A DNA stretch of 31,196 nucleotides from an uncultured Actinomycetota bacterium (GTDB lineage Bacteria > Actinomycetota > Actinomycetes > Propionibacteriales > Nocardioidaceae), in contig CAVXHO010000035.1 of assembly GCA_963761515.1 (NCBI GenBank), positions 1 to 31,196 of the forward strand, given 5' to 3'. Below the pieces are notes generated by a model. The model was not told where the DNA came from. It ran no database searches and was given only the letters and a program-made list of their open reading frames with translations. This document shows, in pieces, positions 24 to 27,373 of this stretch. The number at the start of each line of letters is the position of its first letter. Within the stretch, counting starts at the first letter, position 1. The position numbers and the translations under genes were made by a program.

Positions 24-3806
<3,783 letters not shown>

Positions 3807-3970
3807 GGTCAGGTCACTCCTCGCTTCGTGGGTCACCAGCCTAGGAACGCGGGTCCGACCGGTGGACCTGGTTCCCGCATCGTGACACCGGGAGGAGGGG
3901 CCGACCAATTCCCGGATCGCCAGCGCGCCGCGCCGGGTCGTCGCCTGGCCCGGGTGACTACTGTTGTCGA

Positions 3971-4819: not shown

Positions 4820-4840
4820 ACCGTCCCGGCTGGCTGTGAA

Positions 4841-4906
4841 GTGTGCGGTTTGGTCCACAACCGCATGTTTTCGAGCCCACATGTTGCGGTTTGGGACCAA
4901 ACCGCA
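4841..4906. repeat. Tandem pair of REP-like palindromic elements (core TGCGGTTTGG-GACC-AAACCGCA) between convergent genes
   Basis: Imperfect copy at 4844-4865 (TGCGGTT TGGTCCAC AACCGCA). Perfect 22-nt palindrome at 4885-4906. The same unit recurs at 10278-10342. Confidence 0.8.
4842..4873 (+). terminator. Hairpin (GTGCGGTT...AACCGCAT) followed by GTTTT, a candidate intrinsic terminator downstream of the PAC2-family gene
   Basis: An 8-bp inverted repeat at 4843-4866 followed by a T-rich tract. It is part of the palindromic repeat unit. Confidence 0.35.
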
Positions 4907-4910
4907 GGGG

Positions 4911-6146: not shown

Positions 6147-6214
6147 GCGTGGAGACTACGGCAGCCCTGACGGCACCCGGCCGTCCGGCCCGCCCACAGG
6201 ACGGTGGACGACGG

Positions 6215-7893: not shown

Positions 7894-7899
7894 GGCCGC

Positions 7900-8469: not shown

Positions 8470-8489
8470 GTCTCCACCTTATGCAGGCC

Positions 8490-9212: not shown

Positions 9213-9284
9213 GACCCGAGCCTAGGGTGACGTGCCGGTGACCCGTGCGCGGCCTGCGCGCCGGGCACCGTGCCAGGGGCTAGC

Positions 9285-10274: not shown

Positions 10275-10277
10275 GGA

Positions 10278-10342
10278 CTGCGGTTTGGTCCCAAACCGCA
10301 GGTTTCGGGTCCGAAGGACTGCGGTTTGGGACCAAACGGCGG
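10278..10342. repeat. Tandem pair of the same REP-like palindrome (CTGCGGTTTGG-TC-CCAAACCGCAG, then an imperfect copy) between convergent corA and uppP
   Basis: Perfect 24-nt palindrome at 10278-10301 followed by GTTTCGGG. The second copy at 10319-10342 has 2 mismatches. Confidence 0.8.
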
Positions 10343-10371
10343 CCGACCGCGCCTTATGTCAGGTCGAGATG

Positions 10372-11200
10372 TCAGGTAGAGGTCAGCACGTTGGTGGCCA
10401 GGAGCACGATGCAGCAGGACGCCCAGGCCCACGCGATAAGGGATGAACCACGTGATCGCGTGGTGGGCGACGAACTTGAGCAGCCAGGCGATGGACGCGT
10501 AGGCGACGAGGAACGCCACGACCGTGCCGACCAGCGTCTCCCCCACGCTGATCGAGCCGCCGAGAGCGTCCTTGAGCTCGAACAGCCCGGCGGCCAGCAG
10601 GGCCGGGATCGACAGGAAGAAGGAGACCCGGGTGGCGGTGACGCGGTCGAGGCCGCGGAACAGACCGGCCGAGATCGTGGCCCCGGACCGCGAGACCCCG
10701 GGCACGAGCGCGGCGCACTGGACCACGCCGATCACGATGGAGTCCTTGAGGTTCAGCTGCTTCTCACCGCGGTCCTGCTTCGCTACCCGCTCCGCCGCCC
10801 ACATCACGGCGCTCCAGGCGATCAGGGCGACAGCAACGACCCACAGGTTGCGGAGGTCGTCCTTGATGAAGTCCTTGAACGCGAGCCCGACCAGGCCGAT
10901 CGGGATGGTGCCCACGATGACGTACCAGCCCATCCGGAAGTCGCGGTGGCCGCGCCACTCGGGCTTGACCAGGCCCAGGCACCAGGCCTTGATGATGCGT
11001 CCGATGTCGCGGAAGAAGTAGAGGATCACGGCCGCGATGGCGCCCATCTGGATCACGGCGGTGAAGCCGGTCACCGCGGGGTCGTCGACCTGCAGCCCGA
11101 GCACCTGCTCCGCGATCGTCAGGTGGCCGGTGCTGGAGATCGGGAGGAACTCGGTCAGCCCTTCCACGATGCCGAGGATGATGGCGTCGAAGTAGTTCAT
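10372..11200 (-). CDS. uppP: Undecaprenyl-diphosphate phosphatase (BacA/UppP), with an apparent +1 frameshift near 10411
   Basis: N-terminus MNYFDAIILGIVEGLTEFLPISSTGH and SRSGATI motifs. The uninterrupted frame reads through the REP palindromes to 10196 with non-membrane Arg/Pro-rich text. Shifting one base at about 10411 gives a hydrophobic C-terminus ...GLGVLLIVLLATNVLTST with a stop at 10372. Confidence 0.8.
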
Positions 11201-11309
11201 CGCGTGCTTTCCGGCGTCGGGAGTCGTGCGGGCGCACCCAGGCTAGGGCCCGGATCGACCTGCGAGCCGCACGCCCCCCGCGCGCCGGGGACCGGCTACC
11301 TTTGGGCGC

Positions 11310-12260: not shown

Positions 12261-12479
12261 GTGCCTGACGTCCTGCGGCGCCCGCCCGCACGCGGGGTGG
12301 AGTGGGAGTTCGAGCGGCTCACCATCGCCCGCGACTTCTCGCGCAACGTCGTGACCAAGATGCTGGTCGACCGTGCGGAGCACGGCGGCTGGGAGCTCGA
12401 CCGGGTGCACGTGGCGCCGGACGGCACCCGGCGGGTGACGCTGCGGCGCAAGATCATCCGGATGCGACCGACCTTCTAG
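12261..12479 (+). CDS. DUF5703-family small protein
   Basis: 72 aa with motif EWEFERL...HGGWELDRV...GTRRVTLRRKIIR. GTG start 7 nt after a GGAGG. Its stop overlaps the convergent E1 stop at a TCTAGA. Confidence 0.5.
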   Translation: MPDVLRRPPARGVEWEFERLTIARDFSRNVVTKMLVDRAEHGGWELDRVHVAPDGTRRVTLRRKIIRMRPTF

Positions 12480-14671
12480 ACGTCCTCGGCGTGGCCAGTG
12501 ACACGCAGCGCGGCGGCCACGACGTCGTCCTCGGACAGCAGGACCGTCGCTGCGGCAGGTCCCAGTGGGACGAACGTGTCCGCGCTGGCGACCCGCGCCA
12601 GGCGTCCGGCGTACCCGCCCTCCACCAGGCCGGTCACGACGCCCTCCGCCACCCCACCGCTCTTCCGGGTCTCGTCCACGACGAGGACCGCGGGGAACCC
12701 GACGGCGAGGTCGTTCACGGTCTGGAGCGGGAGCGGCGCGAGCCACCGGAGGTCGACGACCGTGCTCGCCACCCCCGCGTCGGCCAGCCTGACCTGCGCG
12801 CGGAGGCTCATCGGGACCCCGTTGCCGAAGGTCACCAGCAGCAGGTCGCGTCCGTCCCCGTAGCTGGCGACCTGACCCAACGGCACCGACGAGGCGTGCC
12901 CGTCGGCTGCGCTGAAGGGGGCGCTCCAGCCTGCGTCGGCGTCCTCGAGCAGGTCGCGCGAGTGGTACAGCGCGATGGGTTCGAGGACGACGCAGACGTG
13001 GCCCGCCCGGGCCAGGGCGACGCACGTGCGCAGCATCCCGGGCGCGTCAGCGGGATGGCTCGGCACCGCGAGCACGAGGCCGGGGATGTCGCGCAGGACG
13101 GCCACCGAGTTGTCGTTGTGGAAGTGACCTCCGAAGCCGCGTTGGTAGGCCAGGCCTGCGACCCGCACGACCATGCCGTTGCGGTACCGGCCGTTGGAGA
13201 AGAAGGGCAGCGACGCCGCCTCGCCGCGGAGCTGGTCCTCGGCGTTGTGGAGGTACGCGAGGTACTGGATCTCGGGCACGGGCACGAAGCCGGCCAGTGC
13301 CGATCCCAGCGCGAGCCCGAGGATGGTCTGCTCGTCCAGGAGGGTGTCGAACACCCGGTGGCCGCCGAAACGACTGCGCAGGCCGCGCGTCACGCCGTAC
13401 ACCCCGCCCTTGGCCGCCACGTCTTCGCCGAAGACGAGCAGCTCGGGATGGGCGTCCATCTGTTCGGTCAGCGTCTTGTTGATCGCCTGGGCCAGCGTGA
13501 GGGAGGAGCCGGACCCGGGCGGCCCTCCCCTGGCCCCGTCCGGGAAGGCCGCGACGGGACCAGGTCCGTCGCCGGGTGGCGTCCCCGGAAGAGCGAGTGG
13601 CGCCATCACCTCGTCGGCGCTGCACAGATGAGGCTCGTCCAGGACGCGCTCGGCCTCGCCCATCACGTGGTCACGGACCTCCTCGTACCACTCGAGGAGC
13701 TGGTCGGCCGTGGCGTGACCCCCCGCGAGCAGGCACCGTGCCGTGCCGAGCAGCGGGTCCCTCTCGTAGTCCTGCACGATCTCGCGACGGCTCCGGTAGG
13801 CAGCCTCGACGTCCGAGCCCGCGTGCCCCATGAGGCGAACGGCGTCGAGGTGCATCACGGCCGGGTGGCGGGTCTCCCTGACCAGAGCGACCGCCCGGGT
13901 CGTCTGCTCGAGCAGGCTCGAGGGGTCGGCACCGTCCGCGCGCAGGTAGGTGATGCCCGGCAGGCTCTGGAGCGCGGCCCCGGGCCAGCCTCGAGGAGAG
14001 GGCGTGCTGATCCCGATCCGGTTGTCCTCACAGACGAGCAGCACGGGACACGCCAGCCCTCGGTGGGCGAGGTACGACGCCGAGTTCAGCGCCCCGGTCA
14101 CGGTCGAGTGGTTGACCGAGGCGTCACCGAAGCTGCAGACGACGATCGCGTCGTCCGGCCATGGCGTCGAGCGGTCGAGGGTGCGGGCCAGGTCCAGCGA
14201 GTAGGCCAGGCCGACCGCGCGCGGCAGGTGGGAGCCGATGGTGGAGGTCTGCGGGACGATGTGGAGGTCCGGGTGCCCGAACACCTTGTGTCGCCCTCCC
14301 GACATCGGGTCGCGCGAGGAGCAGGTCAGGCTCAGCAGGACGTCGCGCACAGAGCCGGTCCGCCCTGCGCGAGCGGCCCTCGCGGCGTAGAAGCCACCCG
14401 ACCGGTAGTGCAGCAGCGCAGGGTCGTCGGGCCGTGTCACGAGACCCAGCGCGGCATTGCTCTCGTGCCCGGCCGAGCCGATCGTGTAGTAGCCCTTGCC
14501 CTCGGACTGCAGCCATCGGGCCGCGAAGTCCACGTGGCGACTCTCCAGCTGGGCGGCGAACAGCGCCCGGAGGGCCTCCGCGCCGACCGACGTGTCGGAT
14601 GCGTCCGCGCGCTGCGGCTCGCCACGCCACTCCCGGATGGCGTGCGAGAAGTACTCGTCCACCGCCTCCAT
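12476..14671 (-). CDS. TPP-dependent 2-oxoacid dehydrogenase E1 component, fused alpha/beta subunits
   Basis: 731 aa. The N-terminal half looks like a dehydrogenase E1 alpha (TPP-binding). The C-terminal half looks like an E1 beta / transketolase C-terminal domain. Confidence 0.75.
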   Translation of the reverse strand: MEAVDEYFSHAIREWRGEPQRADASDTSVGAEALRALFAAQLESRHVDFAARWLQSEGKGYYTIGSAGHESNAALGLVTRPDDPALLHYRSGGFYAARAARAGRTGSVRDVLLSLTCSSRDPMSGGRHKVFGHPDLHIVPQTSTIGSHLPRAVGLAYSLDLARTLDRSTPWPDDAIVVCSFGDASVNHSTVTGALNSASYLAHRGLACPVLLVCEDNRIGISTPSPRGWPGAALQSLPGITYLRADGADPSSLLEQTTRAVALVRETRHPAVMHLDAVRLMGHAGSDVEAAYRSRREIVQDYERDPLLGTARCLLAGGHATADQLLEWYEEVRDHVMGEAERVLDEPHLCSADEVMAPLALPGTPPGDGPGPVAAFPDGARGGPPGSGSSLTLAQAINKTLTEQMDAHPELLVFGEDVAAKGGVYGVTRGLRSRFGGHRVFDTLLDEQTILGLALGSALAGFVPVPEIQYLAYLHNAEDQLRGEAASLPFFSNGRYRNGMVVRVAGLAYQRGFGGHFHNDNSVAVLRDIPGLVLAVPSHPADAPGMLRTCVALARAGHVCVVLEPIALYHSRDLLEDADAGWSAPFSAADGHASSVPLGQVASYGDGRDLLLVTFGNGVPMSLRAQVRLADAGVASTVVDLRWLAPLPLQTVNDLAVGFPAVLVVDETRKSGGVAEGVVTGLVEGGYAGRLARVASADTFVPLGPAAATVLLSEDDVVAAALRVTGHAEDV

Positions 14672-14682
14672 CGAGCAGCCGT

Positions 14683-16017
14683 CTAGACCTGGTCGAGGAA
14701 CCGGTCGAAGACCCGCGCGCCGAACTCCAGCGCATCCACCGGCACCCGCTCGTCGATGCCGTGGAACAGCGCGGTGAAGTCGAGGTCGGCCGGGAGCCGG
14801 AGCGGGGTGAAGCCGTAGCTGCGCAGACCCAGCTTGTTGAAGTGCTTGGCGTCCGTGCCGCCGCTCATCAGGTACGGCGCCACCCGTGCGTCGGGGTCCT
14901 CGGCGAGGAGGCTCCGGGTCATCGCCTCGACGAGGTCGCCGTCGTACGGCGTCTCCCAGGGCTGCTGGTGGGAGATGAAGGATCGCTCGACGCCCTCACC
15001 GCACAGCGCCGCGATCGTGTCGAAGAACTCGTCCTCGTAGCCCGGCAGGAAACGCCCGTCGACGTGGCCGGTCGCCTCGGTCGGGATCACGTTCACCTTG
15101 TAGCCGGCGCCGAGCATCGTCGGGTTCGCGGTGTTGCGGATCACCGCACCCATCATCCGGGCCGCTCCGCCGAACTCCTCGATCAGCGACTCGGCGTTCT
15201 CGGGCGTCGCCTCGGTGCCGGCCATCTCGGCGACCGCGGCGAGCAGGGTCTGCATCGTCGGCGTCAGCCGCACCGGCCACTCGTGGGCGCCGATCCGCGC
15301 CACCGCGGCCGACAGCCGGCTGACGGCGTTGTCGTCGTTGATCATCGAGCCGTGCCCGGCGCGGCCGCGAGCGGTCAGCTTCATCCAGGCCATGCCCTTC
15401 TCGGCCGCCTCGATCAGGTACAGCCGCTGGCCGCGGATCGTCGTACTGAAGCCGCCCACCTCGCCGACGGCCTCGGTGCAGTGCGCGAGATGCTCGCGGT
15501 GGTCCTCGACCAGCACCTGCGCGCCGTGGTGGCCGCCTGCCTCCTCGTCGGCGGTGAAGCACAGCACGATCGGCCGTTCGGGCACCGCACCCGCACGGGT
15601 CCGCGCCCGCACCACCGAGAGCAGCATCGCGTCGAAGTCCTTCATGTCGACCGCCCCGCGCCCCCAGACGTAACCGTCCTGGATCTCCCCCGAGAACGGG
15701 TCGACCTGCCAGTCCTCGGCCGCGGCCGGTACGACGTCGAGGTGTCCGTGCAGCAGGAGGGCGCCCTCCCCGCCGGGGCTGCCGCCCCACTGGGCCACCA
15801 GGGACGTGCGGCCGCTGTCGAGCTCGAACAGCTCGCTCGAGATGCCGACCTCGTCCAGGAGCGCGGCCACGTGCTCCGCGGCCTTCCGCTCCCCCGGTCC
15901 GGACTCGTCCCCGTAGTTCGTGGTGTCGATCCGGATCAGGTCGCGACACAGGTCGACGACCTCGGCGGTCGGGTCGTAGGAAGGGGTGTACGACGACTGT
16001 TCGGTGTCGTGGGACAT
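14683..16017 (-). CDS. M20-family metallopeptidase/dipeptidase (Rv2141c-like)
   Basis: Has the HGHLDVV and DMKD metal-binding motifs. ATG at 16017 (MSHDTEQ...). The longer ORF to 16185 is an artefact that reads through the antisense of the tRNA. Confidence 0.85.
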   Translation of the reverse strand: MSHDTEQSSYTPSYDPTAEVVDLCRDLIRIDTTNYGDESGPGERKAAEHVAALLDEVGISSELFELDSGRTSLVAQWGGSPGGEGALLLHGHLDVVPAAAEDWQVDPFSGEIQDGYVWGRGAVDMKDFDAMLLSVVRARTRAGAVPERPIVLCFTADEEAGGHHGAQVLVEDHREHLAHCTEAVGEVGGFSTTIRGQRLYLIEAAEKGMAWMKLTARGRAGHGSMINDDNAVSRLSAAVARIGAHEWPVRLTPTMQTLLAAVAEMAGTEATPENAESLIEEFGGAARMMGAVIRNTANPTMLGAGYKVNVIPTEATGHVDGRFLPGYEDEFFDTIAALCGEGVERSFISHQQPWETPYDGDLVEAMTRSLLAEDPDARVAPYLMSGGTDAKHFNKLGLRSYGFTPLRLPADLDFTALFHGIDERVPVDALEFGARVFDRFLDQV

Positions 16018-16096
16018 GCCCCCATCCTGACACTCCGTGGGCCGACTCCCGATGTGAGGAATGGGCTCGTCGGTTGCTAGAGTTCCCTCCGCACTC

Positions 16097-16182
16097 GTCC
16101 GGGTGGCGGAATTGGCAGACGCGCTAGCTTGAGGTGCTAGTGCCCGTATTAGGGCGTGGGGGTTCAAGTCCCCCCTCGGACA
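16097..16182 (+). tRNA. tRNA-Leu (anticodon GAG), type II with a long variable arm
   Basis: Acceptor stem GTCCGGG/CTCGGAC. Anticodon arm CTAGC-TTGAGGT-GCTAG, with the anticodon at 16131-16133. T-arm GGGGG-TTCAAGT-CCCCC. Discriminator A. CCA is not encoded. Confidence 0.9.
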
Positions 16183-16185
16183 CAC

Positions 16186-16635
16186 TTATCGGGTCGATCG
16201 CTCCGGATCCGGGGCGATCACCGGTCGCCGGGCGGCCGACATCTCCGCTCGGCGCCGGATCTCGCGCAGCATCCTCTGCGTCGCGACCTGGTGGGCGTGG
16301 GTGCGCATGAGCAGGGCGTGGTAGAGCCGGCCCCTCAGGCCGGGGAACCGGGCGAACGTGTCGGCCGTGACCCGCGCTCCGGGCCCCTCAGGCGCGACGC
16401 GGAACACCAGGCGGTACGTCGCGAACCGGTGTCGGCCGGCCAGGGTGAGCTGGCGGTGGGGCCTCGTGTCGATGATCGTGAAGCCACTCTCGGGCACGGT
16501 CCCGAGCAGCCGGGAGAGCACCCCGTGGCCCGTCCTGCTGAGCGCCGTCGCATAGCCGACGACCGCGGGCCAGGTCTCGTCCTCACCCGCCCGGACCATC
16601 AGCCCGTGCTCGTCCACGAACGGCAACGTGGTCAT
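16186..16635 (-). CDS. SRPBCC (polyketide cyclase/START-like) family protein
   Basis: 149 aa. Its start ATG overlaps the stop of the upstream cytochrome b gene (ATGA at 16632-16635). Confidence 0.45.
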   Translation of the reverse strand: MTTLPFVDEHGLMVRAGEDETWPAVVGYATALSRTGHGVLSRLLGTVPESGFTIIDTRPHRQLTLAGRHRFATYRLVFRVAPEGPGARVTADTFARFPGLRGRLYHALLMRTHAHQVATQRMLREIRRRAEMSAARRPVIAPDPERSTR

Positions 16636-18272
16636 GAGCCCACTCTGCCTCGCCCGGTCAAGGCGGAACGCTCGGTGGTGTCGGACGACGCGTCATCGAG
16701 CTCCCCTCGGGTGGGGGTCGGGACCCGATCGGCGTACAGGGCTCGCGAGAGGCGGCCGCGGATCCGCATCCGCCACCGCCCCCGCCGTAGCACCCCCCGG
16801 TCGGTCTCCGGCTCCGGCGCCACCACCTCGGGGAGATCTCGGGCGGTCAGCCGGTAGGCCCGCCCGACCTCGAGCGGCGCGTGCCGTTCGGTGTAGCCGC
16901 CCTCGGGCGACCGTACGACGACGCCGGTCTCGCGGCCGTGCAGCAACCGGTCCCGGTCCGCCCGCTGGAGCCCCAGGCACCAGGCGCGGGCCACCAGGAA
17001 CACGACCACCGGTACGACGAGCACCGCCGCCCGCATCACGTAGGTGATCTGGTTCAGGCTCAGGTGGAGCCGGGTGGCCAGGATGTCGTTGCCGCCTGCC
17101 AACCAGAGGAGCCCGTAGACGCAGACCATCGCGGCCAGGAAGGCCGTTCGCGTCGGCGCGTCACGCGGACGCTGGAGCAGATGGTGCTCGCGGCGGTCGC
17201 CCGTCACCCACGCCTCGAGGAACGGCCATCCGACGATCAGCCCGAACAGCACGAACGGCAGCACCTGGCCCGGCAGGAGCACGTTCCACGAGACCGTGTG
17301 CCCGGCCACGTGGGTCTCCCAGCCGGGCATGATCCGGAGCAGACCCTCGGCGATCGCCAGGTACCAGTCCGGCTGCGATCCGGCCGTCACCTTGGACGGG
17401 TCGTAGGGGCCGTACTTCCAGACCGGGTTGATCGAGAGCAACGCGCCCATCAGCGCCGTCACCCCGAACACCATGCAGAAGAAGCCGGTCGTCTTCGCGA
17501 CGTAGACCGGCAGCAGCGGATAGCCCACGACGTTCTTCTCGGTGCGACCCGGGCCGGGCCACTGGGTGTGCTTCTGGACGAAGACGAGGGTCACGTGCAA
17601 CGCGACCAAAGCCAGCAGGATCCCGGGCAGGAAGAGCACGTGCAGGACGTAGAAGCGAGGGATCACCGAGTCGCCGGGGAACTCGCCGCCGAAGAGCAGG
17701 AACGACAGGTAGGTGCCGACCACGGGGGTGGCCTTGATCAGGCCGTCGGCGATCCTCAGACCGGTGCCCGACAGCAGGTCGTCCGGGAGGGAGTAGCCGA
17801 GGAACCCCTCCAGGATCCCCACCAGGAGCATGGTCGCCCCGATCAGCCAGCTCACCTCGCGCGGCTTCCGGAAGGCGCCGGTGACGAAGACCCGCATCAT
17901 GTGCACGAACATCGCGGCGATGAAGATCATCGCGGCCCAGTGATGCATCTGCCGGATCAGCAGACCACCCCTGACGTCGAACGTGAGGTGCAGCGTCGAG
18001 GCGTAGGCGTCCGACATCGGCACGCCGCGCAGCTGGGCGTACGAGCCCTGGTACGTCGACTCCGACATGCTCGGGTTGAACCAGAAGGTCAGGAAGGTGC
18101 CCGTGACCAGCAGCACCACGAACGACCAGAGCGCGATCTCCCCGAGCATGAACGACCAGTGCTCGGGGAACACCTTGCGCAGGTAGCCCCGGCTGAGCCG
18201 GGCCAGGCTCAGCCGGTCATCGGCCCACTCCGCGGCGCGGGCGACGCCGCGACCACGCGTCCCTGTGCTCAT
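16632..18272 (-). CDS. qcrB: Cytochrome b of the bc1 (menaquinol-cytochrome c reductase) complex, QcrB family, stand-alone copy
   Basis: 546 aa. N-terminus MSTGTRGRGVARAAEWADDRLSLARLSRGYLRKVFPEHWSFMLGEIALWSF and the heme-ligand His regions (RQMHHWAA, FYVLHVLFLPG) match actinobacterial QcrB. GGAGGAG lies 5 nt before the ATG at 18272. No Rieske or cytochrome c1 gene is adjacent. Confidence 0.88.
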   Translation of the reverse strand: MSTGTRGRGVARAAEWADDRLSLARLSRGYLRKVFPEHWSFMLGEIALWSFVVLLVTGTFLTFWFNPSMSESTYQGSYAQLRGVPMSDAYASTLHLTFDVRGGLLIRQMHHWAAMIFIAAMFVHMMRVFVTGAFRKPREVSWLIGATMLLVGILEGFLGYSLPDDLLSGTGLRIADGLIKATPVVGTYLSFLLFGGEFPGDSVIPRFYVLHVLFLPGILLALVALHVTLVFVQKHTQWPGPGRTEKNVVGYPLLPVYVAKTTGFFCMVFGVTALMGALLSINPVWKYGPYDPSKVTAGSQPDWYLAIAEGLLRIMPGWETHVAGHTVSWNVLLPGQVLPFVLFGLIVGWPFLEAWVTGDRREHHLLQRPRDAPTRTAFLAAMVCVYGLLWLAGGNDILATRLHLSLNQITYVMRAAVLVVPVVVFLVARAWCLGLQRADRDRLLHGRETGVVVRSPEGGYTERHAPLEVGRAYRLTARDLPEVVAPEPETDRGVLRRGRWRMRIRGRLSRALYADRVPTPTRGELDDASSDTTERSALTGRGRVGS

Positions 18273-18454
18273 GTGCTCCTCCCCGGTCGGGCGCGGCGAG
18301 TTCACCGGCCCGAGAGTGAAGACACCGCCGGCCGTCCGGTTGTGACATCGCGCCCGCCGGGCCCTCTCGAGCCGGCGGCGGATGCGACCGAGATCCCGGA
18401 GGACCAGCTCCTGGCCGCGTGGCGCGAGGAGCTGGATCGCTGAAGCTGGCGGGG

Positions 18455-19423
18455 TCAGGCCTCGCCGCGGTCGGGGGTGGGGTCGAGGAAGACGTAGCGC
18501 ACCTCCGGGAACCGGCCCCTGATGCGCTCCTCGACGTCGTCGGCCGCATGCTCGAGCTCCTCCGGCGAGAGATGGTCGGCCAGGTCGACCCGCGCCGCCA
18601 CCAGCACCTGGTCGGGCGACAACCGCATGGTCAGCAGCTCGAGCACCGAGTCGACCCCTTCGGTCGATGCGATCAGCCGGCTGATGTTCTCGCGGAGCGG
18701 CTGCGGTGCGGCCTTGCCGATGAGGTACTGCTGGTTCTGCCGACCAAGCCCGTAGGCGGCGACGACCAGGAGCGCGGCGATGGCCAGCGATGCCAGGCCG
18801 TCGTACGTGCGGCCGCCGGTGGCGGCGTCCAGTGCCAGCGCGCCGGCGGCGAGCAGGAGCCCGACGAGGGCGACCCCGTCCTCCCACACCACGGCACGCA
18901 GTGCCGGGTCTGCCTCGTGCCTGAGGTGACTGATCATGCCGACGCCGGCCCCGCGGGCGGTGCCGCGCAGCTGCCAGACCGCCCGCAGGAACGACGTGCC
19001 CTCGAAGACGAACGAGAACCCGAGCACCACGAAGGGCCAGGTCGGGGAGCCCGGCGGCTCCGAGCTGGTGAGGGCCTTGACCCCCTGGTACGCCGAGAAC
19101 CCGGCCCCGAGCACGAAGATGCCGACGGCGGCCAGGAAGGACCAGAAGTAGCGCTCCATCCCGTAGCCGAACGGGTGCTCCTCGTCCGGCTCCTTGCGGC
19201 TGCGATGAAGAGCCGCCATCAGGAACCCTTGGTTCACGGTGTCGCCGATCGAGTGCGCTGCCTCGGACAGCATCGCCGCCGACCCGGAGGCGAGCCCCGC
19301 CGCGAGCTTGGCGACGGCGATCAGCAGGTTCGCCGCGCCGGCGACCAGCACAGTCGGGGTGGACTCGTCCTCGGCCATGCCCACGTCGTACCCGATCACG
19401 GCCAGGGCACCGCTCTGTGGCAT
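18455..19423 (-). CDS. Cation diffusion facilitator (CDF) family metal efflux transporter
   Basis: Has six transmembrane helices and the HSIGD and H-x-x-x-D motifs in TM2/TM5. An alternative ATG start at 19378 gives MAEDEST. Confidence 0.82.
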   Translation of the reverse strand: MPQSGALAVIGYDVGMAEDESTPTVLVAGAANLLIAVAKLAAGLASGSAAMLSEAAHSIGDTVNQGFLMAALHRSRKEPDEEHPFGYGMERYFWSFLAAVGIFVLGAGFSAYQGVKALTSSEPPGSPTWPFVVLGFSFVFEGTSFLRAVWQLRGTARGAGVGMISHLRHEADPALRAVVWEDGVALVGLLLAAGALALDAATGGRTYDGLASLAIAALLVVAAYGLGRQNQQYLIGKAAPQPLRENISRLIASTEGVDSVLELLTMRLSPDQVLVAARVDLADHLSPEELEHAADDVEERIRGRFPEVRYVFLDPTPDRGEA

Positions 19424-19441
19424 GCCGGTGGCCGGGGCTGC

Positions 19442-20182
19442 TCAGCGTTCGGAGGCACCGAGTCCTTGGGCGATGCCCCAGAGGACCGCCTGGGAGCGGG
19501 TCGCCGCGCCGATCTTGCGGTACGACGAGCGGACGTAGGACTTGACCGAGTTGATGCTGACGGTGAGCGCCGCCGCGATCTCCGCATTGCTGTAGCCGGC
19601 CGCAATGAGGTCGAGCACATCCGCCTCTCGCGGCGTCAGTCCGGCTTCCTCCCGGGACCACCGGACCTGGACGTCTGCCGGGTCCGCCGGTTGCGCCGGC
19701 CCACTGACGACGGGATCTCCCCGACCGACCCGCTCGATCGCCTCGACGAGCTGCCGTGCGGGCAGCGACTTCGCGATGTAGCCGCGGTAGCCGTGCTGCA
19801 GGGCCGCGGTCACGAGATCGGCCCTGGTCTCCCACGAGTAAGCGGCGACCCTCGAGCCCCCTGCGGTCGGGGGCGCGGGGAGCGCGCGCACGACGCCTTC
19901 ATGGACGCCACTGGGGTAGCAGTCGAAGAGGATGACGTCCGGGGACGTGGGGCTGCTCGACGAGGCGCTGGTCCCCGCTCCGGCATGGTGGATCCGCACC
20001 CGGGCGGCATACGGCGCGAGCATCTGCTGGAGCCCTCGGGCCACGAGCTCGCAGTCACCGAGCAAGGCGACCGTGAGTGCAGTGGGGCGCGCCGAGGGCA
20101 CCGAAGGTCTGTCGCCGCGGGAGGCTGCGGGCAGCGCGTCTCCCGCGCACCCCGCATCGGGGCGCACAACGAGCCGAGTCAT
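19442..20182 (-). CDS. LuxR-family transcriptional regulator with an atypical receiver-like N-domain
   Basis: C-terminal LuxR helix-turn-helix (LTPREADVLDLIAAGYSNAEIAAALTVSINSVKSYV). The REC-like domain has GD in place of the DD acidic pair but keeps the ILFD phospho-site analogue. ATG at 20182 with an AGGA. Confidence 0.78.
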   Translation of the reverse strand: MTRLVVRPDAGCAGDALPAASRGDRPSVPSARPTALTVALLGDCELVARGLQQMLAPYAARVRIHHAGAGTSASSSSPTSPDVILFDCYPSGVHEGVVRALPAPPTAGGSRVAAYSWETRADLVTAALQHGYRGYIAKSLPARQLVEAIERVGRGDPVVSGPAQPADPADVQVRWSREEAGLTPREADVLDLIAAGYSNAEIAAALTVSINSVKSYVRSSYRKIGAATRSQAVLWGIAQGLGASER

Positions 20183-20334
20183 CCGGGGTCCTGGGTTGAC
20201 TAGTCGTGGTACCGCTGCTCGTGATCAAGCAGCAACTTCGCATCTCAGGTGACGACGAGGTGCTCTCACACGTTACTCGCCGACCCGCGAACGGTTCTGA
20301 AATCGCGCTCGCGAAAGTACTCTGAGCATCGTCA
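20183..20334. promoter_or_regulatory. Divergent intergenic region between the LuxR regulator and the first GAF-ANTAR gene, relatively AT-rich
   Basis: A local GC drop (ttctgaaatcgcgctcgcgaaagtactctgagcatcg) between divergently transcribed regulators. No specific operator could be assigned. Confidence 0.3.
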
Positions 20335-21081
20335 GTGCAGCATCCGGGGGCGTCGCTCGCGACCGGGGAGGGAGTGTCGTTGGAACCGCTTCCGGAGACC
20401 GAAGAGGCTCTCGACGAGTACCTCGAGGAAGACGACTCCGACCTGCGAGCCGTGCTCATGGAGCTGGGGCGGCGCGCCGTCGAGCTGGTGCCCTCGTGTG
20501 TCGGCCTGAGCCTGGGCATGGTGAAGGACGGCCTGACCTTCACGCTGGTGGCCACCAGCGAGCAGGTGGCGACCATCGACGCGGCGCAGTATCTCGACGG
20601 CGGACCGTGCGTGGACGTGGCCACCGGCTCCGACGTTCTCGACGTGGACATCCCCGACCTGCTCGACGAGGGGAGGTGGTCGGCGTTCGCGATGACGAGC
20701 GCGGCTCATGGAGTGCGGACCACCTTGTCCCTTCCCATCGTCCGCGACGGTCAGCTGGTCGGAGGCGTCAACCTGTACGCCGCGGAGCTCCACGCTTTCG
20801 ACGGCAAGCACGAGGCGCTGGCGATGGCTCTGGGAGCCTCCGCGGAAGGAGCGGTGGCCGACGCAGACCTGGAGTTCACCTCGCGCGCTCGCGCGGTCGC
20901 CACACCCGCAACCATGGCAGACCTGCGCACCATCGACATGGCCGTCGGCATCCTCGCCGCGCGAGACCGCACGGACGTCGACACCGCCAGGGCACAGCTC
21001 CAGGACTCGGCCACGCGAGCAGGAGTGACTCTCGTACAGGCTGCCAGCGTCGTCGGCTACCTGCGGGAGAAGCGCCGTTGA
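20335..21081 (+). CDS. GAF domain plus ANTAR (RNA-binding antiterminator) domain regulator
   Basis: N-terminal GAF-like region. C-terminal ANTAR motif LRTIDMAVGILAARDRTDVDTARAQLQDSATRAGVTLVQAA. GTG at 20335. An alternative TTG at 20380 lies behind a GGGAGGGAG. Confidence 0.72.
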   Translation: MQHPGASLATGEGVSLEPLPETEEALDEYLEEDDSDLRAVLMELGRRAVELVPSCVGLSLGMVKDGLTFTLVATSEQVATIDAAQYLDGGPCVDVATGSDVLDVDIPDLLDEGRWSAFAMTSAAHGVRTTLSLPIVRDGQLVGGVNLYAAELHAFDGKHEALAMALGASAEGAVADADLEFTSRARAVATPATMADLRTIDMAVGILAARDRTDVDTARAQLQDSATRAGVTLVQAASVVGYLREKRR

Positions 21082-21120
21082 TCCGGAGACCCGGGGAGCC
21101 GATCTGACCATGCTGCCGGA

Positions 21121-21843
21121 TCAGCCGTCCGCGGTGAGTGCCCTCATGACCCGCTTGTCGTGGAGGACGTCTCGCGCCAGATCGGTCAGCTTCACCCGGT
21201 GGTGTCGCGCATACCGCCTCAGGATGTTGAACGCCTCGTCGACGTCGACGTCGAAGGTGCGGGCAACGGCACCCTTGGCCTGCTCGATCACGATCCGGCT
21301 GTTGAGCGCGAACTGCAGCTGCTCCGTGAGCTCCTCCGCGCGCCGGAGACCACGCTCCTGCATGAGCGCGATGGTGGCGACGTCGGCGAGGGCTCTGGCC
21401 ACGCGGCGCTCGTCCTCGCCCAGGAACGAGCTCTGGACGCGGAACACGTTCATGGCGCCGATCACCTGATCCCGCAATCTCAGGGGGAAACAGTGAGTCG
21501 TGGTGAACCCCAGCTCGATGGCCCTCGGAGCGAACGCCGGCCACCGCGCCATCGACGATGCGATCTCGACATCCGCCACCTCCTCGCCCGAGCTGAAACA
21601 GTCCAGGCACGGACCTTCGGCGTGCTGTACCTGGAAGAGCTCGAGCAGACGGGCATCCTCGTTCGAGGAGGCCATCGGGCTGAGTCCCCCGCGATCGGCC
21701 AGCATGACCCCGACGGCCGCGGACCCCGTGACCTCGGCAGCGTCGACCGCGACGGTGTGCAGGAAGTCGACCAGGTCGAAGTCGTCGACCAGGGTGTCCG
21801 CCACCTCAACGAAGACATCCGCCAGGCGTGTACTGCTGATCAC
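21121..21843 (-). CDS. GAF plus ANTAR domain regulator (paralogue 2)
   Basis: C-terminal ANTAR motif LNSRIVIEQAKGAVARTFDVDVDEAFNILRRYARHHRVKLTDLARDV. Confidence 0.75.
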   Translation of the reverse strand: MISSTRLADVFVEVADTLVDDFDLVDFLHTVAVDAAEVTGSAAVGVMLADRGGLSPMASSNEDARLLELFQVQHAEGPCLDCFSSGEEVADVEIASSMARWPAFAPRAIELGFTTTHCFPLRLRDQVIGAMNVFRVQSSFLGEDERRVARALADVATIALMQERGLRRAEELTEQLQFALNSRIVIEQAKGAVARTFDVDVDEAFNILRRYARHHRVKLTDLARDVLHDKRVMRALTADG

Positions 21844-21879
21844 GGTCCCTCACCCACTCTCGCTCTAGGCTCATTATGG

Positions 21880-22647
21880 TCACGAGCCGGCGCCCGGTGA
21901 TCCGTCCGGCGTCGGCAGATGTGCGCCCCCGAGGACCTCGCGAGCCACATCGAGGAGGCTCACGTCGCGGCTGAACGCGTGAGCGCGCATCAGCGACAGT
22001 GCGTCTGCCAGGTCGACCTCCAGGTCGACCATCACCATCCCCTGCGCCTGATGGATCTCCGCCCGACGTTCCAGGGCTTCGACGAGCCGTGCGTTCACAT
22101 CGCCGGCCGAGGCTCCCGGATCGGGGTCGAGCAGTCGCTCCACCGCCAGATCGGCGAAGGTCAGGGCGAGTGAGACCTGGTCGGACCCCAAGAGACCGGG
22201 ACTCGCGGCGTACAGGTCCAGCACCCCCAGCCGGACGGCGCCGACGTGGAGCGGCAGGGAGAAGCAGGCGGCGATCCCGAACCCACGGACGGCACTGACG
22301 TACCCGGGCCAGATGTGCTGACCCTGCTCGAGGAGATCCGGCGCGAACACCGGGCGGGACTGGCTGTAGGCGTCCAGGCTCGGTCCTTCCCCGGTCGCGA
22401 AGGCGGCCTCCCCGACCGCGCGGGCTACCTCGTCGGAGCTGGCCACCACACCGCCGCCGTTCGGGCGGTTCAGGAGGTGGACCGACGCGCCGGCGAGGCT
22501 CAGTGTTGCGGTCGCGGCCCGGCAGATGCGCTGCAGGACGGCCGGCAGGTCGTGCACGTCCTCGTCCGCCCTGGCCGCCGACATGGCCATCAGGGCGAAC
22601 TCACGCCGTCCCGGTCCCGGAGGGCCTGTTCCGTCGTGCGCAGTCAC
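21880..22647 (-). CDS. GAF plus ANTAR domain regulator (paralogue 3)
   Basis: C-terminal ANTAR motif LERRAEIHQAQGMVMVDLEVDLADALSLMRAHAFSRDVSLLDVAREV. It lies 36 nt upstream of paralogue 2 on the same strand. An alternative ATG start at 22590 exists. Confidence 0.75.
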   Translation of the reverse strand: MTAHDGTGPPGPGRREFALMAMSAARADEDVHDLPAVLQRICRAATATLSLAGASVHLLNRPNGGGVVASSDEVARAVGEAAFATGEGPSLDAYSQSRPVFAPDLLEQGQHIWPGYVSAVRGFGIAACFSLPLHVGAVRLGVLDLYAASPGLLGSDQVSLALTFADLAVERLLDPDPGASAGDVNARLVEALERRAEIHQAQGMVMVDLEVDLADALSLMRAHAFSRDVSLLDVAREVLGGAHLPTPDGSPGAGS

Positions 22648-22736
22648 GGGCCTGCTCTCGATGGGCGCGGACGTAGCAGGTCACCCTACTCGGCAGGGAT
22701 ACGGCGACCAGCGCGTCGTGCAGGTCGACGTCTCAG

Positions 22737-23561
22737 TCAGGTAAGGGCGATGGCCGCGTCCGGCTCGGCGACCTTGAACGTGAACGACTCCTCCAGGTAG
22801 AGGTGCACCTGCTCGGCGTCGTGGTGGTGGTAGCCGACCGAGATGTCCTGCCCGACGTCGAGGAGGAAGTCGTCACCCCGCTGGCTCACCACCAGGGCTC
22901 CGGTGAGCCCGGGCGAACGGACGACGCTGCCCGACTCGAGGACCCGGCTCAGGTGGTCCATCAGCGGGTAGCCGCCGTGCTCGGTGGTGGAGACGATCGC
23001 GGTGTAGCGCTCGGGGTCGATGGCCAGGGCATAGGGGCCCTCGATGCCGTTCTGGCGCAGCTCGTCGGCCGCCACCGCCACGATGCCGGGGTACGCCGAG
23101 CAGTCGTCGCCCAACGGCCGTGACGGGTAGGGCGAGGCTTCGGTCATGCCCACGATGTCGGCGGCGGACCAGCCGTTCAGGACGGCCCGGTTCTCCAGCT
23201 CGGCGGCGACCCGTGCGGCTCGCGCGAGGTCGTCGAGCTCGGGGTCGCGGCTCCCGCGCTGAAGGTCGTCGATCTCACCCCGGGACACGGTGAACGGCAC
23301 GCGGTACTCCGCCAGCGGCAGCACCCGGCGCCTCCGGAGGAGGACACCCGTGGCGTCGAGGCCGGCCGGTGGGGCCTCGAGGGTGTCGGTCCGGCCCAGC
23401 GACATCGCGTCGTGCCGCCAACCGCCGGGCCCGACCCAGTCGACGAGACGACGGGCCGCCAGCAGCGGGGTCAGCCGCTCCTTGGCCTCCTCGTCGATCG
23501 CCTTCCAGGCCAGGTCGGGGATGGGGGCATGGTCGCGGAGGAGATGGTTGGGAGACGTCAT
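22737..23561 (-). CDS. Family 1 encapsulin nanocompartment shell protein (linocin M18-like, HK97 fold)
   Basis: 274 aa. N-terminus MTSPNHLLRDHAPIPDLAWKAIDEEAKERL, PFTVSRGEIDD, and C-terminus GYHHHDAEQVHLYLEESFTFKV match encapsulins. AAAGGA Shine-Dalgarno. The ATG overlaps the cargo gene stop (ATGA). Confidence 0.9.
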   Translation of the reverse strand: MTSPNHLLRDHAPIPDLAWKAIDEEAKERLTPLLAARRLVDWVGPGGWRHDAMSLGRTDTLEAPPAGLDATGVLLRRRRVLPLAEYRVPFTVSRGEIDDLQRGSRDPELDDLARAARVAAELENRAVLNGWSAADIVGMTEASPYPSRPLGDDCSAYPGIVAVAADELRQNGIEGPYALAIDPERYTAIVSTTEHGGYPLMDHLSRVLESGSVVRSPGLTGALVVSQRGDDFLLDVGQDISVGYHHHDAEQVHLYLEESFTFKVAEPDAAIALT

Positions 23562-24157
23562 GCTGATGGTCCTTTCAGGCTTCCGATGCCGAGCGAGCCG
23601 TCGGTCCGGCGCTCGGTCGAGCCGTCGTCGTTGGGGTGGAGGTCGGACTCGATCTCGTCGACGTACTCCTGCGGGTCCTTGTCGTCGGTGTCGACGCCGG
23701 CGGTGGTCGGATGGCGGTCCAGGTACTCCTCGAGCTCGCGACCGAGCTGCTCGCGGAGCTCGGGGGCCGCGTGCTGCCGGAAGTCGGCGATCCCGTCGCG
23801 CTCCTCCTCGGCCATGTGCTCGTCGTTGGCCTTGCGCGTCGCGAGCACGGCCGCCCACCACTGCTCGCTGGCGACCGGTTGGCGGGCGGCGTCGTGGACC
23901 CCGTCCCGGATGTCGTTGTGGTCGCCGATCGCGTCCAGGGTCTCGTCCTCGGGGTCGTCCTCGCCTCGCGCCAGCAGCTGCGGGTAGAAGACGGCCTCCT
24001 CCCCTGCTGCGTGTACGTCGAGCCGGGCCGCGAGGGGCTCCCAGATCGCGGCGATCGCCGCCACGTCGGGAGCCGACACGGCGTAGAGGTCGTACAGGGC
24101 GATGAACTGTCTGCGGAACCACGCATGGTCGCGCAGGATCACCTCGGTCACGTCCAT
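23558..24157 (-). CDS. Hemerythrin-like (HHE cation-binding) encapsulin cargo protein with a C-terminal targeting peptide
   Basis: Has H...HxxxE-type motifs (ILRDHAWF, VHAAGEE, IGDHND, DEHMAEEE). The C-terminus RTDGSLGIGSLKGPSA matches the family-1 encapsulin cargo-loading peptide consensus (SLxIGSLK). Start ATG at 24157, or TTG at 24196. Confidence 0.8.
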   Translation of the reverse strand: MDVTEVILRDHAWFRRQFIALYDLYAVSAPDVAAIAAIWEPLAARLDVHAAGEEAVFYPQLLARGEDDPEDETLDAIGDHNDIRDGVHDAARQPVASEQWWAAVLATRKANDEHMAEEERDGIADFRQHAAPELREQLGRELEEYLDRHPTTAGVDTDDKDPQEYVDEIESDLHPNDDGSTERRTDGSLGIGSLKGPSA

Positions 24158-24298
24158 GGTGACCACCGTAGCCAGATCGGGCCGCTCCGAAACCAACCGT
24201 CAGGTGGGTGGTCCGTTACGGGGGAGGTCGCGCTGCCCGGGCGGCCCTAGCGTCGTCCCTCTCTCGTGCCTGCTGACCCGCCACCCGAAGGACGACCC

Positions 24299-26667
24299 AT
24301 GAGCCCAGACCGGCACGCCCGCAGCATCCTGCCGATCCCCGACCGGCCGACGCCGGGCCTGACGACGTACGACGCCAAGGACCCGGACTCGTCGTTCCCC
24401 GCCATCGAGCCTCTGCTGCCGCCCGAAGGCGCTCCCAACGTGCTGATCGTGCTGCTGGACGACGTGGGGTTCGGTGCCTCGTCGGCCTTCGGAGGGCCGT
24501 GCCAGACCCCCACGGCCGAGCGGCTCGCAGCCGGAGGTCTGCGCTACAACCGGTTCCACACGACCGCCCTGTGCGCGCCTACGCGGCAGGCGTTGCTGAC
24601 CGGTCGGAACCACCACTCGGTCGGGATGGGCAGCATCACCGAGACCGCCACCTCGGCTCCGGGCATGAGCTCGCTGCGGCCGAACACCAAGGCGCCGCTG
24701 GCGACCACGTTGAAGCTGAACGGGTACTCGACCGCCCAGTTCGGCAAGTGCCACGAGGTGCCGGTCTGGCAGTCGTCGCCCATGGGCCCGTTCGACGCCT
24801 GGCCCACCGGTGGCGGCGGGTTCGAGACGTTCTACGGCTTCATCGGCGGGGAGAACAACCAGTACGACCCGGCCCTCTACAACGGCACGACGCCCGTCGA
24901 GCCTCCCGCGACGCCCGAGGAGGGCTACCACCTCACCGAGGACCTCACCGACCATGCGATCAGCTGGGTGCGTCAGCAGAAGGCTTTGATGCCCGACAAG
25001 CCCTTCCTCGTCTACTTCGCACCGGGCGCCACCCACGCCCCGCACCACGTCCCGTTGGAGTGGGCGGACAAGTACGCCGGCCAGTTCGACGACGGCTGGG
25101 ACGCTCTGCGCGGGCGCACCCTGGCGCGGCAGAAGGAGCTCGGCGTCGTACCCGCGGACACCGAGCTCACGGCGCGGCACGACGAGATCACCGCCTGGGA
25201 CGACATGCCCGACGAGCTCAAGCCGGTGCTGGCGCGGCAGATGGAGGTCTACGCCGGGTTCCTCGAGCACACCGACCACCATGTCGGCCGGCTCATCGAC
25301 ACCCTGGCCGACCTGGAGATCCTCGACGACACGCTCGTCTACTACATCATCGGCGACAACGGCGCCTCGGCCGAGGGCACCATGAACGGGGCCTTCAACG
25401 AGATGGCCAACTTCAACGGCATGGCCGCGGTCGAGACGCCCGAGTTCATGGTCAGCAAGGTGGACAGCTTCGGCACGCCAGACTCCTACAACCACTACTC
25501 GGTCGGGTGGGCGCTGGGCGATGAACTCCCCACTCCAGTGGACCAAGCAGGTCGCCTCCCACTGGGGCGGCACCCGCAACGGGACCATCGTGCACTGGCC
25601 CCGCGGGATCGAGGAGCGCGGCGGTCTGCGGTCGCAGTTCACCCACGTGATCGACATCGCGCCCGACGATCCTCGAGGTCGCCGGGCTGCCGGAGCCGAC
25701 CATGGTCAACGGCGTCATGCAGTCGCCGATCGAGGGCACCAGCATGATGTACAGCTTCAACGGACCCGACGAGCCGGAACGCCACGACCTCCAGTACTTC
25801 GAGATGTTCGGCAACCGGGGCATCTACCACCGGGGCTGGAGTGCTGTCACCAAGCACAAGACGCCGTGGCTGATCCTGGACCCCCACATGGGCGCCTTCG
25901 ACGCCGACGTGTGGGAGCTGTACGACGGCAGCAGCGACTTCAGCCAGGCCCGCAACCTCGCGGCCGACGATCCGCAGCGGCTCGCCGACCTGCAACGGCT
26001 CTGGCTGATCGAGGCCACGAAGTACAACGTCCTCCCCCTCGACGACCGGTCGGGCGAGCGGCTGAACGCCGACCTGGCCGGGCGGCCGACCCTCATCCAC
26101 GGCAACTCGCAGCTGCTGTTCTCGGGCATGGGGCGGCTCACCGAGAACAGCGTGGTGAGCATCAAGAACAAGTCGTTCTCGGTCACCGCCGACGTCGAGC
26201 TGGGCGAGGCCCCGGCGGAGGGCGTGCTGATCGCGCAGGGGGGTCGCTTCGGGGGCTGGGCCTTCTACGTCAAGGGCGGCAAGGCCAAGTTCGTGTACAA
26301 CGTGCTCGGCATCCACGAGTTCGCGACGGAGTCCGATGACCCCCTTCCCGCCGGTCACCACCAGGTGCGCGTGGAGTTCGCGTACGACGGGGGCGGCCTG
26401 GCCAAGGGTGGAGGTGTGACGTTGTACTGCGACGGCGACCAGATCGGCGCGGGCAGGGTCGAGATGACCCAGCCGATGATCTTCTCCGCCGACGAGACCA
26501 CGGATGTCGGGTACGAGTCCGGAACCACCGTGACCCCGGACTACACCACGGCGACCAGCCGCTTCACCGGCCGGATCAACTGGATCCAGATCGACCTCGG
26601 CGACGACGACCACGACCACTTCATCGACCCCGACGAGCGGCTGCGGATCGCCATGGCGCAGCAGTGA
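24299..26667 (+). pseudogene. Arylsulfatase (Cys-type, formylglycine-dependent), reading frame broken by two +1 frameshifts
   Basis: Has LLDDVGFGASSAFGG and the CAPTR signature (ALCAPTRQALLTGR). The frame shifts after ...YSVGWA (about 25515) into NSPLQWTKQVASHWGGTRNGTIVHWP, and again after FTHVIDIAP (about 25663) into ILEVAGLPEPTMVNGVMQSPIEGTSMMYSFN. The C-terminal domain continues to the stop at 26667. Confidence 0.85.
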
Positions 26668-26701: not shown

Positions 26702-27373
26702 ATGAACGCGGTGATCGGTGACCTGCTGCCGGTGGCGCTCGGCGTGGCGATCTCGCCGATGCCGATCATCGCCGTGATCCTGATGCTGCTCTCGCCACGG
26801 GCGGGCGCCGCCAGCCTCACGCTGCTGGCCGGCTGGATCGTCGGGATCACCGTCGTGCTCACGGTGGTGGTCCTGGTCGCGAATCCCGCCGACGACTCGC
26901 AGGCGGGCAACCCGTCCACCTTGGCCTCGGTGGTCAAGATGCTGCTCGGTGCGGCCCTCGTCCTGATCGGCGTACGCCAGTGGCGACAGCGTCCCAAGGA
27001 GGGCGCGACGGCCTCGGTGCCCACGTGGATGGGCGCCATCGATCAGGTCACGCCGCTCAAGGCCTTCGGGCTGGGCGCCCTGCTGTCGGGCGTGAACCCC
27101 AAGAACCTCGCGCTCGGCCTGGCCGGTGGGGTGATCATCGCCTCGGGAGGGCTCTCGTCCGGCCAGACGGTGGTGGCGATCGCGGTGTTCGTACTGATCG
27201 GGTCCTCGACGATGGCGGTCCCCGTCGTCGGCTACCTGGTGGCACGTGAGCGGATGCAGGCACCCCTGGGTCGGCTGCGCGACTGGCTCATCGACAACAA
27301 TGCGGTGGTGATGTCGGTCCTGTTGCTGGTCATCGGTGTCGTCATCTTCGGGAAGGGACTGGCGGGTCTCTGA
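26702..27373 (+). CDS. GAP-family (DUF2910 / Sap sulfolipid-addressing-protein-like) integral membrane protein
   Basis: 223 aa, highly hydrophobic with about 6 transmembrane helices. It sits between the sulfatase and the FGE gene. Confidence 0.55.
   Translation: MNAVIGDLLPVALGVAISPMPIIAVILMLLSPRAGAASLTLLAGWIVGITVVLTVVVLVANPADDSQAGNPSTLASVVKMLLGAALVLIGVRQWRQRPKEGATASVPTWMGAIDQVTPLKAFGLGALLSGVNPKNLALGLAGGVIIASGGLSSGQTVVAIAVFVLIGSSTMAVPVVGYLVARERMQAPLGRLRDWLIDNNAVVMSVLLLVIGVVIFGKGLAGL

Follow-up and report, generated by a model that had tools for sequence, protein, structure and literature searches.

Hemerythrin-loaded encapsulins were described in 2017, when Giessen and Silver published the "Heme" operon of Streptomyces sp. 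AA4, in which a tagged hemerythrin gene stands directly upstream of a family 1 shell gene of the T=1 cluster. The precedent comprises tag-dependent loading (the cargo no longer co-purified with the shell once its last 12 amino acids were deleted), T=1 assembly, about 20 cargo molecules per 60-mer and protection against H2O2 and nitric oxide (NO) (bioRxiv 10.1101/085266). A later catalogue lists 45 family 1 hemerythrin cargo systems, 42 of them in Actinobacteria (Andreas and Giessen 2021, PMC8346489). Here we analyzed a stretch of 31,196 nt, hereafter the window, from an uncultured actinobacterium (GenBank assembly GCA_963761515.1, contig CAVXHO010000035.1, family Nocardioidaceae) with a high GC content (70% in the window). 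Between positions 22737 and 24157, on the minus strand, lie a gene for a hemerythrin-like cargo protein and, downstream of it, a gene for an encapsulin shell. We consider it very probable (roughly 0.9) that both form the core operon of a "classical" (family 1) encapsulin system whose cargo is of the hemerythrin ("Heme") type, carried on an actinobacterial chromosome.

The window shares with Streptomyces sp. AA4 the arrangement of a tagged hemerythrin gene directly upstream of the shell gene; both hosts are actinobacteria and both tags fit the same consensus. The operon type and the phylum bias of the 2021 catalogue are also those of the window, although the 45 catalogued systems contrast with the more than 514 genomes that held a cargo relative in our scan of one genome per species; about half of the best 80 loci, which were kept for comparison, have the shell gene adjacent. 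The DyP-loaded mycobacterial encapsulins (Cfp29; 7boj, 7p1t and 9fn9) have shells homologous to that of the window over their full length (E 1e-58 to 1e-61) and show, as in the window, C-terminal tag loading and a proposed role in oxidative stress, but their cargo is a haem peroxidase and that of the window a putative di-iron bundle. The hemerythrin-like protein (HLP) of Mycobacterium kansasii and its counterpart Rv2633c (6q09; PMC6993866, PMC8913304) resemble the cargo in having five helices and the same ligand spacing, with a tyrosine five residues after a glutamate; unlike the cargo, to which it is 18% identical, this protein is a free monomer without targeting peptide or shell partner. As a type described in 2017 and catalogued in 2021, the system is familiar, and the locus adds one more example of it, well supported but ordinary. 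The minor additions are a ligand match to an NO peroxidase, a ribosome-binding site embedded in the targeting peptide codons and a sporadic linkage to GAF-ANTAR genes.

The shell gene and the targeting peptide

A first-pass annotation, made from the letters of the window, had proposed a two-gene encapsulin operon at this place, and both minus-strand open reading frames (ORFs) were found exactly there. The cargo gene (23558-24157) runs from an ATG at 24157 to a TGA at 23560-23558 and encodes 199 amino acids plus stop. A longer ORF, initiated by TTG, would begin at 24196, but the closest homologues start with MDVTEVILRDH and we therefore place the start at 24157. The shell gene (22737-23561) extends from an ATG at 23561 to a stop at 22739-22737, with 274 amino acids plus stop. 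Both genes are intact in the window sequence and share 4 nt where cargo stop and shell start meet (ATGA at 23558-23561 on the minus strand, TCAT on the plus strand), as the annotation had read; the overlap is kept in the closest relatives.

That the downstream gene encodes a canonical encapsulin shell, as had been claimed, is borne out by matches to PF04454 (E 5.4e-75, 252 bits) and to the family 1 equivalog NF041155 (encap_f1), which scores 268.8 bits against a cut-off of 100 and covers residues 7-273 of 274. Thirty-seven distinct solved encapsulin chains match the shell in the sequences of the Protein Data Bank (PDB). The closest, 9ry4, aligns end to end (shell residues 5-273 to 2-270, E 2.3e-71); it is one of six sister entries named "Type 1 encapsulin shell protein" and belongs to the same insertion-containing length class as the window shell. 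We found no publication for 9ry4 and no hemerythrin-like chain of at least 20 residues for it in the PDB sequences. An exact-sequence look-up found no record of the window shell itself.

The best-matching shells overall span 1e-37 to 2e-71, with 7odw and several Cfp29 and linocin shells at E 1e-55 to 1e-64 (1e-58 to 1e-64 for 7odw, 7boj and the Cfp29 entries) and the maritimacin of Thermotoga maritima at about 1e-42. Matches to larger shells of the T=3 and T=4 classes, M. xanthus EncA (4pt2) and the Q. thermotolerans shell (6nj8), reach only about 1e-7. The T. maritima and mycobacterial Cfp29 shells, which are among the best matches, we take to be T=1. In the published clustering, Heme systems fall in the T=1 cluster only (Giessen and Silver, bioRxiv 10.1101/085266). 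Because of these PDB matches and the confinement of Heme systems to that cluster, the window shell is expected to assemble as a T=1 60-mer.

The cargo ORF, translated from the window, ends in ...TDGSLGIGSLKGPSA / ...RRTDGSLGIGSLKGPSA. This tail contains the predicted targeting peptide DGSLGIGSLKG (amino acids 186-196; 23570-23602, minus strand), which is followed by three variable residues, PSA (23561-23569). The first-pass annotation had taken the C-terminus for a cargo-loading peptide, and the sequence does fit the published core consensus DGSLGTIGSLKGE, used by Giessen and Silver to find cargo proteins (bioRxiv 10.1101/085266). It is the sole match in the window, since no other such motif occurs in any of the six frames. 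An alignment of 26 sequences with 59-89% identity to the window cargo shows no variation at L189, G190, G192 and L194. The ending (D)GSLGIGSL(K/R)G plus 0-4 residues is shared by nearly all of the 120 best homologues, the exceptions being truncated sequences. Among the 80 genome loci the tag is kept in 77, so that the conservation in orthologues on which the annotation had staked its claim is indeed found; of the three exceptions, the tail of L010 diverges after GSL and those of L015 and L071 are truncated or frameshifted.

The cargo protein and its putative di-iron site

The claim that the upstream gene is hemerythrin-like agrees with a PF01814 match over cargo residues 3-120 (35.2 bits; gathering score 25.3). 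A large protein collection contains 2778 cargo homologues at E<=1e-3, the best of them 90% identical. A single-sequence search of the PDB with the cargo detected no solved structure. The 26-sequence alignment was also fed to AlphaFold2 (AF2), and the resulting cargo model has a predicted local distance difference test score (pLDDT) of 87.9, with long helices at residues 3-25, 32-64, 69-91 and 98-129, a fifth helix at 132-148 and a short one at 162-173; the tail (183-199) is disordered.

The predicted four-helix bundle (amino acids 1-129; 23771-24157, minus strand) harbors the putative di-iron ligands H11, H49, E53, Y58, H80, H114 and E118, all of them invariant in the alignment, in the pattern H-HxxxE-Y-H-HxxxE. 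The fifth helix and a conserved C-terminal segment (amino acids 149-173) follow at 23639-23770 on the same strand. They carry the motif HPTTxGxDxxDKDPxxYV, in which H149, D159, P162, Y165 and V166 are invariant, and are modelled with a pLDDT of 89-97 over blocks of 10 residues. Between this segment and the targeting peptide, in the variable linker (amino acids 174-185; 23603-23638, minus strand), the pLDDT drops to 68 and then to 40. The linker is the sole region of the cargo alignment with gaps or length variation, a pattern that fits a flexible tether.

The top Foldseek match of the model in the PDB is 6q09, the iron-bound HLP of M. kansasii (probability 1.00, template modelling score 0.72 on the target, 18% identity); hemerythrin domains of FBXL5 come next, and the E-values of all these matches are weak (0.1-1). 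A profile built from the cargo alignment places H49, E53, Y58, H80, H114 and E118 on H45, E49, Y54, H71, H105 and E109 of 6q09. In that structure these residues are crystallographic iron ligands, and its authors call the tyrosine and the fifth helix unique to the class (PMC6993866). H11 lies outside the profile alignment and is paired with the M. kansasii His11 by equal numbering only. The cargo resembles the HLP/Rv2633c class without being demonstrably a member of it; the profile match is of marginal significance (E 0.012, 18.8 bits).

The set of five His, one Glu and one Asp ligands that marks true O2-carrying hemerythrins is not found in the cargo, whose ligand positions hold four invariant His, two Glu carboxylates and, where the fifth His would be, Y58. 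From this ligand set we regard the protein as hemerythrin-like and not as a true O2-carrying hemerythrin. The M. kansasii HLP is a weak catalase and an NO peroxidase (PMC8913304). Since ligand pattern and fifth helix match those of that protein, scavenging of NO and H2O2, and not O2 carriage, is the most likely chemistry; by this analogy the cargo would probably act in a catalase-like and/or NO peroxidase-like manner.

Gene overlap, relatives and neighborhood

The codons CTG AAA GGA near the end of the tag create a Shine-Dalgarno-like sequence, GAAAGGA (23570-23576, minus strand), 8 nt before the shell ATG. Both AAA and GGA are unexpected in a cargo gene whose GC content at third codon positions is about 0.9. 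A purine-ending codon (GGA, GGG or GAG) follows the K/R codon in 36 of 39 shell-adjacent loci, as against 7 of 39 loci without a shell gene (Fisher p 1.6e-11, with loci counted as independent and phylogeny uncorrected); in the remaining 32 of the latter that codon is GGC, GGT, AAC or GAC. Where Arg takes the place of Lys, shell-adjacent loci usually encode it by AGA. Five loci (L019, L042, L064, L075 and L077) have a spacer of 39-86 nt before the shell gene together with an Arg CGC or a pyrimidine-ending codon, and they include all three of the 39 that lack a purine-ending one. Across the relatives, the L-K/R-G/E codons yield the variants GAAAGGA, GAGAGGA, GAAGGGA and GAAGGAG. It appears, from these codon patterns, that the 3' end of the tag doubles as the Shine-Dalgarno sequence of the shell gene. 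An embedded site of this kind, a detail that may be new, supports a tight translational coupling of shell to cargo; coupling had been suspected earlier from the overlap, and codons and overlap together make it plausible.

In about 41 of the 80 loci the cargo gene is immediately followed by the shell gene, and so it is in the three closest contigs, from soil metagenome assemblies (L081-L083). Such shell-adjacent loci come from uncultured Actinomycetota metagenome-assembled genomes (MAGs; 75-86% cargo identity), Pseudonocardia and Actinomycetospora, among others; Pseudonocardia provides the nearest named relatives among the loci kept, at 64% cargo identity. Of the approximately 41 loci, 17 show ATGA or GTGA overlaps and about 15 others a gap of 0-9 nt. 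The very ATGA of the window recurs in L001-L007, L018, L020, L021 and L032, and GTGA in several others. In L081-L083 the gene order of the window is kept: cargo, shell, two GAF-ANTAR genes, a third GAF-ANTAR gene on the opposite strand, a GerE/LuxR gene and a cation-efflux (CDF) gene. In these three contigs and in L003, L015, L034 and L071 some shell or regulator genes are frame-split, truncated or mis-called as fusions, one of the mis-calls being a 780-residue "hemerythrin-linocin-GAF-ANTAR" protein. These broken genes look like indel errors of long-read metagenomes or, in L015 and L071, real decay.

About 39 of the 80 loci have no shell gene within 6 kb and keep the tag SL(G/R)IGSLKG. They belong to Mycobacterium, Mycolicibacterium, Rhodococcus and some MAGs (e.g., L017, L022, L024, L027, L031, L033, L037-L040 and L044-L048). 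The tagged cargo of these genomes fits loading in trans into a shell that would be encoded elsewhere. Such a position apart from any shell gene sets the Mycobacterium and Rhodococcus relatives off from the window as "secondary cargo", of which 14 hemerythrin cases have been reported, with M. simiae as the named example (bioRxiv 10.1101/085266). The first-pass annotation had called hemerythrin a described but rare cargo class implicated in oxidative or nitrosative protection. The literature confirms the family 1 class and protection against H2O2 and NO, but "rare" is true only in relative terms, given the more than 514 species-level genomes that encode a relative.

Directly downstream of the shell gene stand two tandem minus-strand genes with Pfam GAF_2 and ANTAR domains, which we call gafA (21880-22647) and gafB (21121-21843). 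Beyond them follow a third GAF-ANTAR gene (20335-21081, plus strand), a GerE/LuxR gene (19442-20182, minus strand) and the CDF gene (18455-19423, minus strand). The block of GAF-ANTAR and LuxR regulators pointed out in the first-pass annotation is real, but it is not a conserved part of the system. Only 7 of 81 loci have an ANTAR-domain ORF no more than 6 kb from the cargo gene, and of six gafB relatives only the two closest (94% and 80% identical) adjoin the operon; the other four (61-79% identity; L084-L087) keep the tandem pair in unrelated contexts without an encapsulin gene. On these counts we do not regard GAF-ANTAR genes as generally belonging to the system. A shell-less cargo gene is followed by gafA-like and then gafB-like genes, in the order of the window, in three mycobacterial loci (L033, L055 and L069). 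We conclude that gafA and gafB form a module of their own, linked to the operon repeatedly but only sporadically. The tandem paralogous pair (L084 4308-6729), sometimes joined by an opposite-strand third gene, was observed as a conserved module of Actinomycetota in many unrelated contexts.

Three relatives (L001, L002 and L004) pass from the shell gene directly to an M20 peptidase gene and an E1 dehydrogenase gene, which in the window lie at 14686-16185 (longest ORF, minus strand) and 12479-14671. Since these relatives join shell and peptidase, the stretch at about 16.2-22.7 kb is an indel with respect to them. The extra block of about 6.5 kb (~16186-22736), present in the window and in L081-L083, holds a tRNA-Leu gene, cytochrome b, the CDF transporter, GerE and the three GAF-ANTAR genes. 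The tRNA-Leu(GAG) gene, at one edge of this block (16097-16183, plus strand), overlaps the 5' end of the longest peptidase ORF, and the true start of the peptidase must therefore be further downstream.

As the first-pass annotation had noted, the operon diverges from a sulfatase locus, which begins at about 24299 on the plus strand; a leader and promoter region common to the cargo gene and the sulfatase would lie at 24158-24298 (minus strand for the cargo). A consensus scan of 21700-24400 revealed no sigma-70-like promoter or intrinsic terminator, no Rfam match was obtained at E<=10 within 20000-24500, and the RNA fold of the leader is not more stable than that of shuffled sequences (z +1.17). 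The spacer between shell and gafA has an unremarkable RNA fold, and co-transcription with the GAF-ANTAR genes is neither shown nor excluded. A pattern scan of the window for ANTAR-type dual A..G.. hexaloop hairpins found none near the operon. Its single match (6710-6761, minus strand) lies inside a coding region and, with 1.4 expected by chance from shuffles, is probably not meaningful.

The reading of the arylsulfatase gene (24299-26667, plus strand) passes through three frames: frame 2 extends as far as ...NHYSVGWA near 25515, frame 0 (MNSPLQWTKQVASHWGG...VIDIAP) to about 25665, and frame 1 (TILEVAGLPEPTMVNG...) continues from there. The two frameshifts, within about 150 bp, point to a pseudogene or, alternatively, to two indels in the assembly. 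An SfLAP gene (26702-27373) comes after it. At the other end, the window contains (24-11242) metH, a PAC2-family gene, an mshC/cysS-like ligase gene, a beta-lactamase-family gene, DUF3090, a histidine phosphatase gene, corA and uppP (BacA). We place the encapsulin operon on the chromosome because this left part is a typical actinobacterial core region.

Proposed function and competing explanations

By analogy with Streptomyces sp. AA4 and with solved homologous shells, 60 shell subunits would form a T=1 cage of about 24 nm. Around 20 cargo molecules, presumably dimers in solution by the same analogy, would dock via DGSLGIGSLKG on the inner face of the shell, which may protect the enclosed di-iron sites. 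The encapsulated centers would bind and consume H2O2 and NO diffusing through the shell pores, and the cell could gain protection against oxidative and nitrosative stress, as in the AA4 precedent. Expression of the shell would be coupled to that of the cargo through the ribosome-binding site in the last tag codons and the ATG placed over the cargo stop. Nothing in the analysis contradicts this assignment, which nevertheless has limits. The likeness to AA4 is one of architecture and tag consensus. The T number is derived from sequence clustering alone, and a single-sequence AF2 model of the shell has a pLDDT of 32, which leaves the HK97 fold to homology. The similarity of the cargo to 6q09 is remote (18% identity, Foldseek E 0.12, profile E 0.012).

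It could be argued that the cargo is a ferroxidase or iron-storage protein, like the Flp and IMEF cargos, and that the shell stores mineralized iron instead of detoxifying oxidants. Hemerythrin cargos do cluster in the ferritin-like four-helix-bundle superfamily of encapsulin cargos (PMC8346489), and the CDF gene (18455-19423, minus strand) is 3 kb off; however, L001, L002 and L004 lack that gene at the corresponding place, the ligands are of the hemerythrin-like type (H-HxxxE-H-HxxxE plus Tyr), and the best structural match is an NO peroxidase and catalase. For the characterized hemerythrin encapsulin, met-hemerythrin spectra and protection against H2O2 and NO were described and no mineralization was reported (bioRxiv 10.1101/085266). 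We hold iron storage to be improbable. A phage or bacteriocin origin is more improbable by far: the shell would be an HK97-type capsid remnant of a prophage or a secreted bacteriocin ("linocin M18"), and the cargo tail a coincidental likeness. Encapsulins share the HK97 fold and the Pfam family is still named Linocin_M18, but the marginal match to a PHROGs major head family (E 0.003, 17.6 bits) compares with 269 bits on the family 1 equivalog, the window has no phage genes nearby, the GC content of the operon is like that of the rest of the window, with a flat profile, and hundreds of relatives keep the tail, which occurs together with the shell gene. The prophage capsid reading was rejected on the equivalog score, the weak PHROGs match and the GC profile.

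The GAF-ANTAR neighbors raise two further ideas. One is that the cargo is mainly a sensor of O2, NO or redox state that works with the two downstream RNA-binding regulators, encapsulation being secondary or regulatory. Bacterial hemerythrin domains are often sensors (PMC9388753), and M. tuberculosis senses NO and Cu through a GAF sensor kinase paired with an ANTAR response regulator (PMC8131098); the few loci with a nearby ANTAR gene include the three mycobacterial shell-less ones with the same pair, and the synteny persists in L081-L083. Nevertheless, four of the six gafB relatives stand in unrelated contexts, as expected of an independent module, and L001, L002 and L004 have nothing between shell and M20 peptidase genes. 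An output domain is missing from the cargo, the conserved tag of the cargo suggests packaging, and its leader contains neither an ANTAR-type dual-hexaloop hairpin nor an unusual structure, so that we consider a sensor role very improbable. The other idea, which we regard as unlikely though less so than any of these alternatives, is that the cargo corresponds to the mycobacterial di-iron NO peroxidase in an encapsulated form and makes up, here and in some mycobacteria, an NO/redox stress unit with the GAF-ANTAR pair; the pair would then detect the stress and act on the operon at the RNA level. No paper in the literature collection searched mentions both encapsulin and ANTAR. If such a unit existed, hemerythrin encapsulins would gain a defined enzymology and their first dedicated regulator.

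Taken as a family 1 hemerythrin encapsulin operon, the locus represents the confident annotation of a previously unannotated metagenomic locus and not a discovery. Its relatives indicate that the cargo family is far commoner in Actinomycetota than the 45 systems of 2021, often as shell-distal "secondary" cargo. The end of the tag would be under a dual constraint, from binding to the shell and from the ribosome-binding site of the shell gene, which matters when such operons are recoded or engineered. Finally, the identical ligand pattern ties a poorly understood hemerythrin cargo to the biochemically defined NO peroxidase of M. kansasii and suggests a concrete assay.

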